From contig JBEKSC010000022.1 in the NCBI GenBank assembly GCA_049517415.1, positions 1 to 47,458 of the forward strand: a DNA stretch of 47,458 nt, written 5' to 3'. A program made the position numbers. The first letter of the stretch is position 1, and every line of letters begins with the position of its first letter. Positions 30,001 to 39,000 of this stretch are shown piece by piece. The stretch is from Candidatus Bathyarchaeia archaeon. GTDB lineage: Archaea; Thermoproteota; Bathyarchaeia; 40CM-2-53-6.

Positions 30001-33000
30001 TGTCAGCCGCCGTCACAATGTTTCAAAAGGTACTTTTCTTGACCTAGAAGCTCCGAGCTACATTTCGGACAATCTAAGCTCATTCACAATACTTGAAAAA
30101 TACAAACAGATAACGAGAGAATTGTCGTCCGACCCATCGGTCAGTGAATAATGAAAGTAGAATTTCAGGTAAGGAAGAGAAGAACTCATCCTGATTTGGC
30201 TGCCCTGCCGAGATTTGAACCTAGCAATCTCGTGGGTTCAATTCAACTCGCAATGGTTCCATCCCATGGGACGGCAAATCCTGTGTTCTCATGATGGCAC
30301 TTTAGATGCTTGTTGTCCTCTTAGTCCCCAGTTGTTTTTTGGCACATCGTGGATTACTATATGAAGTGATTCAGGTTTTACGCCGATCTCTTCGAAAGCT
30401 TTCGTTATACCTTTGATGAGCGTCTCCTTCTGTTCGGGAGCTCTTCCTTCCCACATCTCAACTATGACTACGGGCATGCAGATTCACCTCCCCAGATTAG
30501 AGGTTCAGTGTTACCGTGGACTGAAATATGTGTTACTGGCTCGGTTCGTACAAAAGAAAGGGTTTGTTCTGCGCGAAACTAAGGACTCAGTACATCTTGA
30601 ATGTGACGTCCCCCCAGAAGTTACAGATCCTTGCGGAGGTCGTCCAGAAGCTGTTTCGTGTATCTGGCCAGGCTCCGGATTAGTGGATCCTCCTCTCCGT
30701 CGGCGTCTAGGTACTTCTTGCGTCGTTCGTGATCTGTTAGTAAAAGAGACTCGGCCTTGCTGTTGAGGGACTCGAACGGACCGACCGGTTGTGGATTACC
30801 GATAGGGACAGCGCGTCGATAGGAAAGAAATCTAACGAAAATGTTCGCCGTTGAATCGTTGAAGGCCGTGGACCTATGCATTTGAAAAGCAGGGGAAGCA
30901 ATGGCCGTCTCAACGGTCCCTGAATTTCTCATAATAGACTCTTCGAGAGTCTAATCATCGCGGGCGTTCATTTATCGACTTTTTTTGAGTTACTACGTTC
31001 AAAGTAAGTTTCCATGCAGCTGAGTTCAATTTTTCATTGAATCAGCTCAAAATGAGAGGCTTTCCGCGGTTTAACCAACACTATAGTGTGCTCTAAAATA
31101 CTTAATGCATGGGGCTTCGAACTCACGAGACGAGAAGACCGGGGTTGCATCTTTCCGCGCGGCCATTGTTAACGCTCGCGTTTTGCCTTGTCGTAGCTGG
31201 GCTTATCCTACCAAATGTCGGAGCCCAGCTTTCTTACTCGGCTTCAGTTACCATAGCAGGCCTTCCGTCAACCGTTAGCACTAACCTTTACGTTGATGGG
31301 CTCTTCAACACAACAATTAACGGGGGACAGACCCTTACCTTAACGTTCTCCGCTCCAAACACCGGCCATGTAATCACAGTAGATTCTTACGTACCGAATA
31401 GTGTCTTGGCGAACGGCACGCGTTTCTATGAGCCTGACGCGTCATGGGCCTTCACGGCGGCTGGCAGCCACATTTTCACTTACACCGCGCAATACTATCT
31501 GACCGTAGAAACGTCTTACGGTACCTCGACCGGTCAAGGATGGTATGAATCCGGCACGGCGGTGCATGCGACAATAAATGACTCGAATGTTGATGAGGGT
31601 CAAGGAACACGAGAAGTCTTCTCAGGATGGTCAGGAGATGCATCCGGAAGTGGTTTGACTACGGCGCAAATATTCATGACTGAGCCGAAGACCGCCATAG
31701 CGAATTGGAAGACGCAATTCCTTTTGACAGTGGGGTCCAACCCCGCCAACGTTTCCGGTCTCTCCGGCTCTGGTTGGTATGATTCGGGGAACGAAGCGAC
31801 ATTCTCAGCAGCTGCAGTTCTACCGGCCAGTGACAATACGCGTCTTATGTTTGAAAAATGGAGCGGAGACTACTCGGGTCAATCAACGACTGGGCAGCTC
31901 CTAATGGACCGGCCCGAAACAGTCCAGGCGAATTTTCTCGCTCAATATTTGCTTACGGTTCAATACAGTCCAGTAAGCATTACCTCCGGGTATAACGCAT
32001 CTCATGCAGGCTGGTATGATCTCAACACAAACGTCCAGCTTGGCCCAGCTCCAACAACTGTCAACCTGAGCTCCGTCGAGCGCCTTCGCTTTATCGGCTG
32101 GACCGACAATAATTCAACTTCTTCAAACCCGTCCTACACAGTGGTCATGAATCAACCGCGCACAATCACGCTCTCGTACAAGACACAGTATTATGTGGAT
32201 GTGCAATCTTCGCACGGTTCGGTTTCAGGTTCGGGATGGTACGACCGCGGGACCACAGCAAATATCACTGCCACTAGTGACCCCCAAACTTGGCCCATTT
32301 CATATACTCTAACTGGTTGGCAGCTCGAACCCTCGACAGGGGCGGTCACGAAGACTGATCATTCATGGAGTCTGATTGTGACTGGACCTTACGTTGTTCA
32401 AGCTGAGTGGAGCTTTGACTATCTTCCGTTTGTCGAACTCTTTGGCGGTGGCGGAATCGCAGTCGCGGTCGTCGCGGTGGCGTTCGTTCTTGCCCGTAGA
32501 CGGGGTGTCTCCGACCGTGCGCAACCAATGCCTAGTCGTCTAACTTCAGTAAGTGCGCCCGCTTCCCCGATTGTAATGCAGGTCTGCATTACCTGTGGGA
32601 ATTCTGTTCCGAAGGGGGCATTCTGTGAAAAGTGCGGAGCTCCTATGGAAGCGCCCGCGGTATCGTCATTGGATGAAAAGGTATACGATTACATCGTGAA
32701 GCATGAAGGCGTAATCTCGTTAAGCACGGCATCAGCTGAACTCGGAATTCCTATTGAAGAACTCAAGACAATAACGGGCCGGCTAAAGAATCAGGGTCGC
32801 CTAGCCTAGAAAAGCGAGAAGGGTGAACGCGCTTGCTGCTCGCCCTCCATCAAGTATTGGCCGGATTGAGACCCCAGCTTCGGCGCCAATCCCCAGTAAC
32901 ATTCGGTGCACAGGCTTAGGGCTCCATATTGTCTGTTGCAGGATGAGCAAATTGGCCTTCCACATCTTGAGCAGATGAATGAGGATGGCAGCTCAGAATG

Positions 33001-36000: not shown

Positions 36001-39000
36001 CTCAAGAGCGAGACTGGGCCCCAAATCTGTCCGTCCTCGATTCCGTAGTAGAGGCCGACCGCCAAGAGGATTACGCAGACATTGTAGAGCCCGAAGAGGA
36101 GCAGCATTACGTCTCTGACTTGAATGGGTGAACCTGCCGAAGTGAGAGTGCTAACTGTATCGCGGTATTGTGAGTACTCGGGCCATAGAAATCCGCCAAG
36201 CAAGAGGGCTGAAAGATAAATGACGGGACCTACGGCTCCGAAAGCGCCGAGTGCTCGGGGTATCATCGATGGGGTTACTCTTTCTACTTCCGGCGTTGGA
36301 ACGTTCATGCCGCGAGCAATGTTTTCTTGGCGAGTCGCTGTATAAACTCCGGAAAAGACACTGATTCTCTCAGCGGATAAGCGTACGGCTCCACCTGTCC
36401 GATGATCCACGCGAAAGAACCCGACTTCCCCTGTCGATGTGTCCACGACCATACCCACAACCAGTTTCGAGAATTGCTGAAGGGTTCTTTGAGTTTCGAT
36501 GTCTGTTGGCGAGAAAAAAAGGCCGCCCACGGTATGTGAATGGTACCAACCCACAATGTTACCTTTTATTAGCCCAGTCACAAGCCCGTCCGCGATTTTC
36601 GCTAGCGCGTTCGAAGAGAGGCTTACCCTATGCGGCCCGGCTGAGGATTCACCTGTAATTGCGTTTTCTATTATCAGCGTATTGCCTTCAAGTCTTCCTA
36701 ACAGTAGGCCGACGATCTCATTTTTGTTGGCACGCGCAGCCTGCACTATCTTGTCGTTAACAGGTTTCCCTATGCTCACATTCGACAATGTCTCATCTGC
36801 TTTTCGCTATGTGTTCCTATTCGTCCTAAACTCTCTTTTTTCCAATATCATCAAACCTTCAATGGTATGTCTCGCGTGCACAATCGTCAGGTCGAGTCAA
36901 GTCCGAATTCTTTATGCAACGCTAGAACGGCCTTAGGTCCGTCCTTCTCAGTCACGACGAACGAGATGTTTAGCTCCGATGAACCTTGAGCAATCATCCG
37001 TACATTAACACCCGCCTTAGCAACAGCGCTAAACACTCGTGCGGCGACTCCCGGGGTCCCTTTCATTTCGGCCCCTACCGCTGCGATAATGCAGACATCG
37101 TCCTCCGTTGACATGTCCCTCACGACCTCCACCCCTAGTACGCTAAGTTCCAAAGCGCTTTTTGCTCTCTCCAAGTGATCTCTTGCAGTCACAAACGAGA
37201 TGCCTGCTTCCGAAGAACTCTGGGATATCATCAGAATGTTCACACCTGCGTCCCCCAGAACCCTAAAGACCTTAGCGGCAACTCCGGGCAACCCAGACAT
37301 GCCTGAACCGGTGACATTTATCAGCGCAAGCTTCTTGATCATTGTGATCGCCTTCACGATCTCTTTACTTCTTTCTGAGGTGTCGCCAGCGACAAGTGTT
37401 CCTTCAGAGTTGCGATTGAAAGCATTTCTGATGCGGACAGGGATTTGGCGGTCGGCCACGGGTTCTAGGGCTCGAGGGTGGATTACTTTCGTGCCGAAGT
37501 ATGCCATCTCACTTGCTTCCGCGTACGACACGTGTGGCAGAACTTTCGCACCGGCCTCTATGGTGGGGTCTGCTGTCATTAACCCGTCAACATCCTTCCA
37601 GAGGACAACTTCGTCGACCGACAGGGCGGCACCAATTATTGTCGCTGTGTAGTCCGATCCGCCTCTGCCCAGGGTAGTCGTGACTCCACGAGGGGTAGAG
37701 GCTCCGAAGCCCGCAACTATTGGCAGCGTCCGAGTCTCCAGCAAGCGCTCTAGTTTGTTCTTCACTTGACGGATTGTGATATCCATTAGTGGGGTTGAGT
37801 CTCCGTAGACCTCATTTGTTATTATGCCTGTCTCGCCACCTGTTAACCACACAGCATTAATGCCTGCATAGTTCGCTGCGCCACAGAAGATTGGAGCCGA
37901 CAATCGTTCTCCGAAGGAGAGAACAAAATCCTTTGAACGAGGTGTAAGTTCCTCCAAACGAGCAATGCTTCTTAGGATACCGCCAAGTTCCTTCGAAATC
38001 CCCTCAAGCTCACGAAGAACCATCTCAAGGGCAGACGAACCTTGAATGCACTCTGTCGCTATTCTGCGATGATGTTCCAGCTGCCTTTCTACAAATGAAT
38101 TTACCGAGCCAATGTCGCCTTCCATCGCTTTCGTGGTGATGCTCAGGAGTTCCGAGGTGACCTCAGGGAAGGCCGATACCACGACTACGAGTTGGCATCC
38201 GCTCTTCAATGATTCGTTTACGATTTCTACGGCATTTCTAATGCCTTTTGCACCAGCAAGTGAGGATCCCCCAAATTTCATTACGTATCGCAAGGTTGGA
38301 TCTTCTCACATCGCAAGTCTTTTCTTTATGTCGATAAGGTCGCGCAGAACCGAGCTTGCCGTCTCTCTACCGCCTGCCCCACGGCCACAAAGCGTGATCT
38401 CGCCGGCTAATTCGGTTTTGAACAAAACAGCGTTCAATATGCCGTCCACGCACAGAGGATTACTAAGAGAGATTGCTCTCGGCCGAACTGACAACTTGTA
38501 GTCCTTCGTCGAACCAACTAATTTTATCGCCTTGTTCTGTCTCTTGGATTCTTCTATCTCTTGGAATGTGACGGATGATATGCCCTCGATCATCACATCG
38601 CGGATGGAGGCACTTCCCCCCATCACCCAGTTGCTGATAATGACCAGTTTTATTGCCGTGTCGATTCCATCAATGTCAAATCTGGGATCGGCCTCGGCAT
38701 ATCCGAAGTCACGTGCCTCTTTGAGTGCGTGGCTCATGCTGACTCCTTCCTTGAACATTTGTGTGAGGATGTAGTTTGTCGTGCCGTTCAAAACTCCTTC
38801 AACAGATAGTACTCGATCTCCGGCTAAGCATTCCTTTGCGAACTTCAGGAGTTGTGTGCCCCCTCCAACTGTGCCACTGAACCTGAAGTCCACACCTTGA
38901 TAGCGAGCAAGTTCAAGTAGGGCTGGCATTGCCACTGCCAGCGGCCCCTTGTTCGTGGTGATAACGTTCAGGTCATTCTTTAGCGCCGACTCTATATGTG

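Follow-up and report, generated by a model that had tools for sequence, protein, structure and literature searches.

A probable membrane-associated, eukaryote-like ubiquitin system with paralogous B-box proteins in Bathyarchaeia

Five co-directional genes on the minus strand (32806-36788) of the window, by which we mean the whole 47,458-nt stretch of Candidatus Bathyarchaeia archaeon DNA that was analysed, encode a JAB protease fused to a DUF998 domain, a ubiquitin, an E2, an E1 and the zinc-finger protein g02169. The analysis shows which domains the proteins have, their catalytic residues, conservation and gene order, and the phyletic coupling of the genes; we consider that the system probably represents a membrane-associated, eukaryote-like machinery for ubiquitin conjugation and deconjugation, of the Caldiarchaeum/Asgard kind. 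The E1-E2-ubiquitin-JAB set is complete and of the eukaryote-like archaeal kind, its catalytic motifs are intact and strongly conserved, and enzymatic activity of this core is very likely. All five ORFs of the initial annotation were present in the ORF listing at the positions and on the strand that it gave, and its Pfam figures for them were reproduced. Its delimitation of a five-gene unit was too narrow, as the conserved unit comprises about seven genes and includes g02178 and a convergent gene for a 566-aa protein. According to the 2017 Caldiarchaeum paper, known archaeal operons carry a small RING-H2 protein where the operon described here has B-box proteins. What seems to be new is the tight coupling of a B-box module to a ubiquitin operon.

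In the pathway that we propose, the E1 would adenylate the 80-88-aa ubiquitin at its GG terminus, which is encoded ready for use. The ubiquitin would then form a thioester with Cys246 of the E1 and pass from there to a canonical HPN-type E2, on Cys96. Ubiquitin would be removed at the membrane by a JAB/MPN+ protease whose closest solved relative is an archaeal Rpn11-like enzyme, and which would be held there by DUF998 in this genome and by other anchors in relatives. In nearly every relative the core is bracketed by two paralogous zinc-ribbon plus B-box proteins, the soluble g02169 and the membrane-anchored g02178. Gene neighbourhood suggests that these may be E3-like or substrate-adaptor components bringing E2~Ub to membrane-proximal targets, a tentative assignment that we regard as possible rather than probable. 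One candidate target would be the tail that the convergent 566-aa surface protein extends into the cytosol; that membrane proteins are the substrates is a rather doubtful proposition.

The E1 (33364-34608, minus strand; 414 aa) consists of an N-terminal ubiquitin-like (Ubl) domain (34405-34608), a ThiF-type adenylation domain and, at the C-terminus, a domain of about 80 aa. The extra Ubl, which had been noted previously, is borne out by Pfam (ubiquitin, 33.7 bits, beside ThiF at 171.5 bits), by the alignment and by an AF2 model (pLDDT 85.1, pTM 0.85). Invariant in the alignment are the GxGxxG region, the zinc CxxC motifs C226/C229 and C321/C324, and P245-C246, with Cys246 encoded at 33871-33873. 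The best PDB sequence matches are eukaryotic UBA1 (E 1.3e-34, 122.8 bits), with ThiF at 3.6e-23, and the top Foldseek match of the model is UBA3 (2nvu_B, E 2.1e-21), aligned over its length in 431 columns; the protein resembles UBA3, with an extra N-terminal Ubl and with its C-terminal domain in the UFD position. The E2 gene (34605-35201, minus strand; 198 aa) overlaps that of the E1 by 4 nt and encodes a UBC fold (Pfam UQ_con, 61.5 bits) with HPN at 34944-34952, the catalytic Cys96 at 34914-34916 and two DIVRF repeats in its C-terminal tail. It matches 265 PDB E2 sequences at E<=0.01 (best 1e-11), and H84, P85, N86, C96, W104 and P106 are invariant in 34 sequences. The ubiquitin (35213-35479, minus strand; 88 aa, or 80 aa if translation starts at M9) ends in IIGG without an extension. 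It matches Pfam ubiquitin (40.9 bits) and TUG-UBL1 (37.4 bits) and, in the PDB, polyubiquitin and the "Ubiquitin-like protein" of 6fj7/2mqj/6fnn; across loci L001-L020 it is 88-99% identical, as against 56-92% for the E1.

The deubiquitinase (35520-36788, minus strand; 422 aa; Pfam JAB 41.5 and DUF998 65.1 bits) has its JAB/MPN+ domain in residues 1-150, with E24 and an intact H83-S-H85-x7-S93-x2-D96 motif (36501-36542), followed by a DUF998 membrane domain with six hydrophobic segments (residues 179-373). Its best PDB match is the "proteasome subunit N11-like protein" of 6fjv/6fnn/6fno (E 1.3e-17), ahead of CSN5 (E 5e-11) and Rpn11 (E 1e-7). The membrane tether that had been claimed for it was found both here, as hydrophobic segments, and in the loci of the relatives inspected. 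The DUF998 anchor is limited to the closest relatives of the window, and most relatives have one TM helix and a large extracellular domain; the tether is conserved and the type of anchor variable.

The last gene of the operon, g02169 (32806-33240, minus strand; 144 aa, with the true start probably at M12, position 33207, according to the alignment of homologues), encodes a zinc ribbon (33145-33198), a conserved strand motif PPVKV-x-VKSP (33094-33123) and an eight-ligand Cys/His module (32899-33009) with the sequence C78-x2-H81-x8-C90-x2-C93-x4-C98-x2-C101-x9-C111-x2-C114. Despite its low gene-caller score it is a real gene, because it has 84 homologues and dN/dS values of 0.11-0.32 (in three of eight comparisons, with unsaturated dS). 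Pfam gives Zn_Ribbon_1 at 23.4 bits and zf-B_box at 21.1 bits (E 3.6e-4), the latter below its cut-off of 24.1. All 12 ligands had been described as invariant; in a 40-sequence alignment this is so for C78, H81, C90, C93, C98, C101 and C111, whereas C15, C18, C29, C32 and C114 are conserved at >=90% only, the exceptions being truncated or frameshifted rows. No hydrophobic segment was detected in g02169 by the hydrophobicity scan. The AF2 model reaches pLDDT 73-84 in the ribbon and 69-84 in the eight-ligand module. The nearest folds of the module model are two-zinc treble-clefs, all matched weakly (Z<4), with FYVE (Z 3.4-3.7) scoring above RING (Z 2.5-2.8) and B-box (Z 2.6), and Foldseek returned nothing for it at E<=1e-3.

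A profile search of the genome upheld the two paralogues reported earlier, g02178 and C34:10247, and added a fourth at C8:37619-37885. In g02178 (45657-46472, minus strand; Pfam and profile match, E 1.1e-26), a zinc ribbon, a PSVRVVTP motif, a B-box module with Asp at ligand 6 and a P/Q-rich linker precede a TM domain, where the scan showed hydrophobic segments. The initial annotation had counted a prokaryotic B-box-type E3 among the novelties. The B-box as a domain is nothing new in prokaryotes, because the module also stands at the head of actinobacterial rhomboid proteins (Pfam Rhomboid E 2.9e-31 and 3.9e-32; zf-B_box 20.0 and 17.3 bits). Furthermore, 5780 cluster representatives match the module profile, and 115 of the 148 best representatives scanned match Pfam zf-B_box. 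The module thus belongs to a large radiation of B-boxes in prokaryotes that has been recognised before, and whose members are mostly fused to membrane proteins in organisms lacking ubiquitin.

The earlier counts of the system's distribution proved close to ours: of the order's 105 genomes, 65 (21 of 25 genera) have UQ_con, as do 69 of the 401 class genomes sampled, and g02169-profile matches at E<=1e-5 occur in 80 of the 105. The description of the system as order-specific holds insofar as, within the class, it is found mainly in one order (65/105 vs 4/296 genomes outside, two of the four above the cut-off), but not strictly, since there are related operons in MAGs of Thermoplasmata, in one MAG labelled Thermoprotei and in two other class genomes. 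All 65 order genomes with an E2 have a strong g02169-profile match (E<=2e-16), and none of the 34 order genomes lacking such a match has an E2. Clustered genes, too, are lost together regardless of what they do. Among loci seeded with the E2, a choice that does not favour the finger, the next gene after the E1 is a co-directional module ORF in 49 of 55, Thermoplasmata included, and six lack it; an upstream co-directional ORF with module and TM segment is present in 42 of 46, and 47 of 51 have downstream a convergent gene homologous to the C-terminal part of the 566-aa protein, all of these being counts from related, hence non-independent, genomes. In the Thermoplasmata operons, JAB(TM)-Ub-E2-E1 is followed by three B-box membrane proteins.

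Alternatively, the cascade may be real and the B-box proteins not E3s but partners, regulators or substrate receptors of the tethered JAB, or ubiquitin receptors or targets, with the E2 conjugating without an E3, perhaps through its own DIVRF-repeat tail. We consider this reading somewhat unlikely. Burroughs, Iyer and Aravind reportedly described prokaryotic B-box domains in 2011 as partners of membrane-associated peptidases, with functions unrelated to ubiquitin. The module is widespread in bacteria without an E2, fused to rhomboids, DUF4190, LiaF-type and other membrane domains, so that neither its ancestral nor its general role is E3 ligation; since B-boxes are fused to membrane peptidases in other prokaryotes, the proteins described here could by analogy be partners of the membrane-tethered JAB peptidase. 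In relatives, L001 among them, the g02178-type gene lies immediately upstream of JAB. All paralogues, the Thermoplasmata ones too, have a conserved [VI]-[KR]-V-x-V strand motif ahead of the module, which could be a docking strand; its basic residues switch between K and R, so that there is no fixed acceptor lysine, a point against this alternative. The ribbon of g02169 has RanBP2/NZF spacing (C-x2-C-x3-N-x6-C-x2-C), and its model has weak fold matches that include the ubiquitin-bound Npl4 NZF (Z 2.5), but it carries G-K or G-Y where a ubiquitin-binding NZF carries T-F. Directly after the last zinc ligand, where we would expect a linchpin Arg/Lys, the module has Tyr, Ala or Ser. The 2017 Caldiarchaeum paper calls the linchpin conserved in RING E3s, and a 2010 paper names a "B-box zinc finger" among the extra domains found in mycobacterial rhomboids. 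Against this alternative, the soluble paralogue follows the E1 rather than JAB, and in some lineages (e.g., L086, L089 and L098) abuts or overlaps the E1 stop; it stands where known archaeal operons have their RING protein, according to the Caldiarchaeum paper. Neither zf-RING_2 nor Prok-RING_4 had a match in this genome (100% complete by markers), in a search whose controls matched nowhere either.

Anti-phage defence systems of the bacterial Bil or CBASS-Cap2/Cap3 type likewise combine Ubl, E1, E2 and JAB, and the E1 adenylation domain matches 33 PADLOC "E1-E2" models (best E 1.8e-19), with a weak match of the JAB to a PADLOC JAB model (E 0.0043). However, the E1 scores 122.8 bits against eukaryotic UBA1 and 68 bits against the defence models, and the E2, ubiquitin, g02169, g02178 and the 566-aa protein match no model at E<=0.01 in the 2023 version of PADLOC, which may be without Bil models. 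The cluster is also single-copy, its neighbours are unchanged in 21 of the order's 25 genera, and its ubiquitin is nearly invariant; such features mark housekeeping genes rather than a mobile defence island, and we find a defence function very improbable. That the E1 and the ubiquitin-fold protein are merely a ThiS/MoaD-type sulfur-carrier pair among unrelated neighbours is still harder to credit, since, although NCBIfam ThiF and MoeB match the adenylation domain (E 1e-34 to 1e-24, far below their cut-offs), no NCBIfam equivalog reaches its cut-off, the best E1 matches are eukaryotic E1s, the modifier matches Pfam ubiquitin and not ThiS, a canonical E2 gene overlaps that of the E1, and a JAB gene is conserved alongside.

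The 566-aa protein (31109-32809, plus strand), encoded downstream of the operon and convergent on g02169, is a type-I-like surface protein and a candidate partner or substrate of the ubiquitin system. A signal/TM segment, an InlB-B-repeat ectodomain, a TM segment (residues 444-462), a cytosolic zinc ribbon and, at the C-terminus, a domain of ~50 aa follow one another in it; Pfam gives Flg_new_2 (51.8 bits) and weak zinc-ribbon matches, and the Atlas points weakly to HTH_24 (score 0.81). At the other end of the operon, g02178 is parted from JAB by an 8.8-kb segment (36789-45582) that the closest relative, L001, does not have: in blastn, L001 2807-4469 corresponds to window 47229-45583 and L001 4450-10284 to window 36788-30955. 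The segment carries genes for an aspartate kinase (36887-38293; Pfam AA_kinase and ACT) and for 342-aa, 1092-aa and 703-aa ORFs, of which we read the first as a putative homoserine dehydrogenase.

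The five open reading frames that the initial annotation had described as a ubiquitin operon, together with their Pfam assignments, were reproduced with identical scores in the window. All are on the reverse strand and encode, in order, the JAB+DUF998 protein (35520-36788, 422 aa), ubiquitin (35213-35479, 88 aa; Pfam ubiquitin), E2 (34605-35201, 198 aa; UQ_con), E1 (33364-34608, 414 aa; ubiquitin plus ThiF) and g02169 (32806-33240, 144 aa; Zn_Ribbon_1 plus a sub-threshold zf-B_box). From JAB to g02169, the genes are spaced by 40 nt, 11 nt, a 4-nt overlap between E2 and E1, and 123-156 nt. 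We compared gene order in two sets of related loci, one of 34 loci seeded with the g02169 alignment and searched by tblastn with the window proteins, the other of 66 loci seeded with the E2 and unbiased for the finger. The order recurring in both sets was a g02178-type gene, JAB, ubiquitin, E2, E1, a g02169-type gene and a convergent surface protein resembling the 566-aa protein encoded at 31109-32809 (+), so that the five genes stand but the conserved unit is bigger than had been claimed. Proteins of g02178 type combine a zinc ribbon, a B-box and a TM part, and those of g02169 type have the ribbon and the B-box. Among E2-seeded loci with enough flank, a finger gene directly followed E1 in 49 of 55, a finger-plus-TM gene was upstream in 42 of 46, JAB was upstream of ubiquitin in 43 of 51, and a convergent homologue of the 566-aa protein tail was present in 47 of 51, these counts coming from related species and hence being non-independent. 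In the remaining six of the 55 (L088, L092, L096, L102, L110 and L114) E1 was not directly followed by a finger gene; L114 has one ~1.3 kb away on the opposite strand. The E2-seeded contig scan returned this E2 subfamily alone, its patterns being specific, and the Caldiarchaeum and Asgard operons were outside its catch. In the window, g02178 (45657-46472, reverse strand), the membrane-anchored paralogue of g02169, is separated from JAB by 8.8 kb. Collinearity with the closest relative, L001, covers window positions 47229-45583 and resumes directly at 36788-30955; the segment skipped, 36789-45582, is therefore an insertion or rearrangement in this genome. It contains an aspartate kinase, a likely homoserine dehydrogenase, and ORFs of 1092 and 703 aa. 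About 20 nt of L001 (4450-4469) align to both of its junctions.

E1, E2, ubiquitin and JAB look active and eukaryote-like. Among solved structures, the best sequence match of E1 was eukaryotic UBA1 (E 1.3e-34). An alignment of 20 E1 sequences contained an invariant GAGA-x-GNE nucleotide-binding motif, the CxxC zinc motifs C226/C229 and C321/C324, and P245-C246, which sits in the only poorly modelled loop of the AF2 model (pLDDT 85.1, pTM 0.85); we infer that Cys246 is the catalytic residue. The model comprises a beta-grasp unit (residues 2-67), a Rossmann core and a separate folded C-terminal domain (335-413, in the order beta-alpha-alpha-beta-beta-alpha-beta-beta), and Foldseek placed the NEDD8 E1 subunit UBA3 first (2nvu_B, E 2.1e-21, 431 columns), with whole-E1 alignments to UBA3 spanning ~430 columns. 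The N-terminal ubiquitin-like domain (Ubl; Pfam ubiquitin, E 3e-8) was found in every aligned relative, Thermoplasmata included. The E2 (UQ_con, 61.5 bits) has H84-P85-N86, Cys96, a YP-x-KPP loop and W104-x-P106, which were kept in 34 sequences, H84, P85, N86 and C96 being invariant. Ubiquitin (Pfam ubiquitin, 40.9 bits) ends in IIGG with no extension and is 88-99% identical over loci L001-L020, versus 56-92% for E1 in the same loci. In JAB domains, the metal-binding motif consists of a Glu and HSH-x7-S-x2-D; E24 and H83-S-H85-x7-S93-x2-D96, read from the sequence of the window protein (Pfam JAB, 41.5 bits), form an intact copy. Its best PDB match was the 'proteasome subunit N11-like protein' (6fjv/6fnn/6fno, E 1.3e-17), which we take to be the Caldiarchaeum Rpn11 enzyme of Fuchs et al. 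2018, with CSN5 at 5e-11 and Rpn11 at 1e-7. An NCBIfam scan of six cluster proteins returned no family at its cut-off.

The available text of two papers describes, in Candidatus Caldiarchaeum subterraneum, an operon of ubiquitin, an E1-like protein, an E2-like protein and the small RING finger protein srfp, with an adjacent Rpn11/JAMM (Hennell James et al. 2017, PMC5654768; Fuchs et al. 2018, PMC6043591). Like that operon, the cluster in the window is compact and encodes a ubiquitin-fold modifier (a match to the 'Ubiquitin-like protein' of 6fj7/6fnn at ~29-30 bits), a JAMM deubiquitinase, a small protein with a two-zinc finger, an E2 with HPN and Cys, and an E1 that resembles UBA3 and has a C-terminal domain. 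The model of this E1 can be aligned with NEDD8 E1, a structure of which (3GZN) was taken as the structural homologue of the Caldiarchaeum E1 in the accessible part of the 2017 paper, where a C-terminal ubiquitin-like (UFD) domain is given as a feature of Clusters I and II (PMC5654768). The differences are several. Where Caldiarchaeum has a RING-H2 finger, the window has B-box-type fingers, preceded by a zinc ribbon, in two paralogous proteins of which one is membrane-anchored; ubiquitin is made with a free GG end, whereas the Caldiarchaeum pro-ubiquitin is extended by nine residues; JAB is the first gene of the cluster, runs in the same direction as the others and has a membrane tether; an extra Ubl is present at the N-terminus of E1; and among the neighbours is a conserved surface protein whose cytosolic tail contains a zinc ribbon. 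The cascade is of a known kind; its new form lies in the B-box finger that replaces the RING, the tethering to the membrane, the fusion of a Ubl to E1 and the conserved neighbour encoding a surface protein.

The finger module (C-x2-H-x8-C-x2-C-x4-C-x2-C-x9-C-x2-C) is conserved with eight ligands, ligand 6 of g02178 being Asp in close relatives of the window and Cys in more distant orthologues. Against the zf-B_box cut-off of 24.1 bits (PF00643), g02169 scored 21.1 and g02178 16.9 bits. A module-only profile, built from 32 sequences and searched among 1.84 billion, matched 5780 cluster representatives at E<=0.001, 173 of them at E<=1e-10. We scanned 148 of the best 150 representatives with Pfam, P0061 and P0077 being omitted as already known, and found zf-B_box at E<=0.001 in 115 of the 148 (best 2.4e-16), the first, P0085, reaching 35.5 bits. 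Zinc-ribbon families were present on 39-41 of these 148, and the combination of ribbon, B-box and membrane domain was a frequent architecture. Because g02169 and g02178 score below the Pfam cut-off while their profile relatives match, membership rests on transitive homology, by which the module is assigned to a known prokaryotic B-box clade and not to a new kind of finger. Burroughs, Iyer and Aravind reportedly described in 2011 a prokaryotic radiation of B-box domains that partner membrane peptidases and have no connection with ubiquitin. Its ligand pattern and its ribbon/B-box/membrane architecture are common to the window proteins, but here the domain is a fixed part of a Ub-E1-E2-JAB operon in an archaeal order and also in Thermoplasmata. 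The module was also found at the head of rhomboid proteases in Actinobacteria and, in the Atlas, on DUF4190, LiaF-type and other bacterial membrane proteins; the accessible part of a 2010 paper already lists the B-box finger on mycobacterial rhomboids. A prokaryotic B-box is thus not new as a domain.

In an AF2 model of g02169 based on 40 sequences, the module (pLDDT 69-84) forms four short strands and a helix, the ribbon is modelled at 73-84 and the linker is disordered. When compared with 48,161 chains by VIA-align, the module gave only weak matches, all to small zinc domains: FYVE at Z 3.4-3.7 (rmsd ~2 over 43-45 residues) and, weaker, RING at Z 2.5-2.8 and the COL2 tandem B-box at Z 2.6 (rmsd 1.9 over 37 residues). 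Foldseek of the model against the PDB gave no match at E<=0.001, and a direct search of the PDB with the g02169 sequence gave nothing below E 0.075. The module appears to be a small two-zinc treble-clef domain, like those of eukaryotic TRIM/MID1-type B-box and RING E3s, but FYVE matches it better and neither RING nor coiled coil adjoins it. In eukaryotic B-box domains the last two ligand positions are His, whereas in the module they are Cys-x2-Cys. The linchpin of RING domains is located next to the last zinc ligand; the residue following the last Cys of the module is Y in g02169 and g02178 and A, S, T, V or F in paralogues, with no Arg or Lys. An R/K linchpin is conserved in RING E3s according to the available text of PMC5654768. 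The g02169 ribbon aligned with RanBP2/NZF fingers (Z 2.5-2.7). Its spacing is that of an NZF-type ubiquitin binder, but this role, though considered, was set aside: G-K or G-Y stands at the position of the T-F dipeptide that a ubiquitin-binding NZF needs. A conserved strand motif, [VI]-[KR]-V-x-V-x-x-P, precedes the module by ~25-35 residues in all paralogues, those of the Thermoplasmata locus L117 included (for example PPVKVDVKSP, PSVRVVTP and VKVKVIKP; window 33094-33123 and ~46310-46340). Its Lys was set aside as a fixed ubiquitin acceptor, as K and R alternate among paralogues.

Within the order, Houtuarculales, the E2 was found in 65 of 105 genomes and 21 of 25 genera, and all 65 are among the 71 genomes that had a strong match to the g02169 profile (E<=2e-16). 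The six genomes with such a match and no E2 are 69-98% complete. The remaining 34 genomes, which make up the E2-free genera g2, g3, g4 and g16 plus one g25 genome, had neither. This locking of the g02169 B-box subfamily to a ubiquitin operon is an unusual feature. Of 296 genomes sampled from the rest of the class, 4 had an E2 match, two of them above the cut-off. The system had been described as order-specific, and it is indeed concentrated in the order, but related operons occur in two Thermoplasmata MAGs (L117, L118), where JAB with a TM segment, ubiquitin (ending in GGTSA), E2 and E1 are followed by three B-box membrane proteins; the E1 of these operons has the Ubl and is missing the C-terminal domain.

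Several products of the unit are predicted to be membrane proteins. In the JAB protein, the DUF998 part (PF06197, 65.1 bits versus a cut-off of 30, residues 186-368) contains six hydrophobic segments, g02178 has at least two strong ones, and the 566-aa protein has one at its N-terminus and another at 444-462; a hydrophobic-segment scan of g02169, E1 and E2 found none. The JAB-DUF998 arrangement is restricted to the window and four of the 66 E2-seeded loci (L056-L059); in the other relatives inspected, a single TM helix and a large Ig-like ectodomain come after JAB. The JAB tether is thus conserved and its anchor exchangeable. In L026, JAB and the ectodomain part are separate genes, the second opening with a zinc ribbon.

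Conjugation and removal of ubiquitin by E1, E2, ubiquitin and JAB have been biochemically shown for Caldiarchaeum (available text of PMC5654768), and by analogy the core of the present cluster very probably does both. The position of srfp is occupied in this cluster by the B-box-type finger rather than by RING-H2. On g02169 and g02178, no RING family reached E<=0.1 except Prok-RING_1, with 14.7 bits on g02178, and a genome search with zf-RING_2 (PF13639) and Prok-RING_4 (PF14447) gave no match, a result that does not establish absence because the controls matched nowhere either. From the srfp position and the lack of a RING match we therefore rate an E3 or substrate adaptor at the membrane as the likeliest role of the B-box proteins, as a tentative assignment. 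The wide use of the module without ubiquitin, the lack of Arg or Lys after the last ligand and the weak fold matches count against it. Alternatively, the E2 may work without an E3, and the B-box proteins may either serve the membrane-tethered JAB as its partners or receptors, or be readers or targets of ubiquitin. Together these options form the main rival, which we consider doubtful though possible; the module occurs on many membrane proteins outside ubiquitin operons, and in this operon it stands where Caldiarchaeum has its E3. In its fullest form, the E3 interpretation would make the zinc-ribbon plus B-box proteins the ligases of a membrane-working archaeal ubiquitin system, in which soluble and anchored paralogues would steer E2~Ub to surface proteins, the 566-aa protein for example, at their cytosolic tails, and the tethered Rpn11-like enzyme would take the mark off again. 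Such a system would prefigure, in prokaryotes, TRIM-type B-box E3 activity and ubiquitin-controlled membrane-protein turnover, having evolved outside Asgard and being common to Bathyarchaeia and some Thermoplasmata; taken as a whole, we hold it to be possible but on balance improbable.

Two further explanations concern the cluster as a whole. The accessible text of PMC10557695 and PMC11354881 describes bacterial Bil (BilABCD) and CBASS Cap2/Cap3 as ubiquitin-like conjugation systems, and these resemble the window in being operons of a Ubl, an E1, an E2 and a JAB-type protease. An anti-phage defence system of Bil or Cap2-like type is nevertheless unlikely: in PDB sequence searches the window enzymes are nearer to eukaryotic and Caldiarchaeum ones, the cluster is vertically conserved and has zinc-finger and membrane components, and in PADLOC (2023 library) E2 and ubiquitin matched 0 families, JAB reached E 0.0043 and E1 matched 'E1-E2' models by its adenylation domain only. 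A sulfur-carrier pair is likewise unlikely, ThiF (3.6e-23) and ThiF/MoeB (~1e-23 to 1e-17) being among the sequence matches of E1 behind UBA1, and ThiF and MoeB coming after UBA3 in Foldseek.

A literature search on Bathyarchaeia ubiquitin and archaeal B-box/JAB operons found no account of this operon, and Supplementary Fig. 1 of PMC5654768 may show related clusters. The available text of that paper does not contain 'RBG', 'Miscellaneous', 'Thaumarchaeota' or 'Bathyarchaeota', nor do two of its supplementary files contain 'Bathyarchaeota', 'RBG' or 'B-box'; one Bathyarchaeota paper mentioning ubiquitin merely lists, in its accessible part, an M67 isopeptidase. Archaeal eukaryote-like ubiquitin operons are the best models for the origin of the eukaryotic system. 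To our knowledge, that of Caldiarchaeum, whose E3 is a RING-H2 protein, is the sole such archaeal operon to have been reconstituted. The present variant, which most genera of one Bathyarchaeia order have retained and which is also seen in Thermoplasmata, has B-box-type fingers in place of the RING, the deubiquitinase and one finger tied to the membrane, and a Ubl on E1. Should the B-box proteins turn out to be E3s, B-box E3 activity would be ancient and prokaryotic, and the operon would be a simple system, open to expression, in which to study how the link between ubiquitin and membrane proteins first arose. Should they not, it would still be a natural test case, which could reveal E3-independent conjugation or a prokaryotic B-box job beside membrane peptidases.

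Several minor features of the proteins and loci were also observed. The C-terminal tail of the E2 (window 34605-34750, residues ~150-198) contains two DIVRF-like repeats (DDIVRFDVVPVP ... GDIVRFDLPG) that are kept in many relatives and may serve as a docking strand. The homologues of g02169 have a Q/Y/P-rich tail with a conserved R-S-x-F or similar end (window 32806-32840). This genome encodes two further finger proteins outside the operon, a 122-aa zinc-ribbon plus B-box protein (contig C8, 37619-37885; L038) and a 184-aa protein that has a B-box and TM but lacks the ribbon (contig C34, 10247-10801; L037). Some relatives have ubiquitins with a short extension after GG, as in Caldiarchaeum pro-ubiquitin (GGTSA in L117, 5689-5967; GGRSWITP in L027, 4520-4780). 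In L113, L114 (the contig of L022) and L115, from MAGs labelled Thermoproteales, Thermoprotei and Thermoleophilia, ubiquitin and E2 form a fusion, the reading frame running on without a stop from GG to the beginning of E2, and cleavage would be needed to free the ubiquitin. Operon-bearing contigs with 70-76% E2 identity were also found under the bacterial MAG names Acidoferrum, Acidiferrales, Methylomirabilota and Nitrospiraceae (L064, L065, L071, L075, L007, L018 and L020); these are probably mis-binned archaeal contigs.
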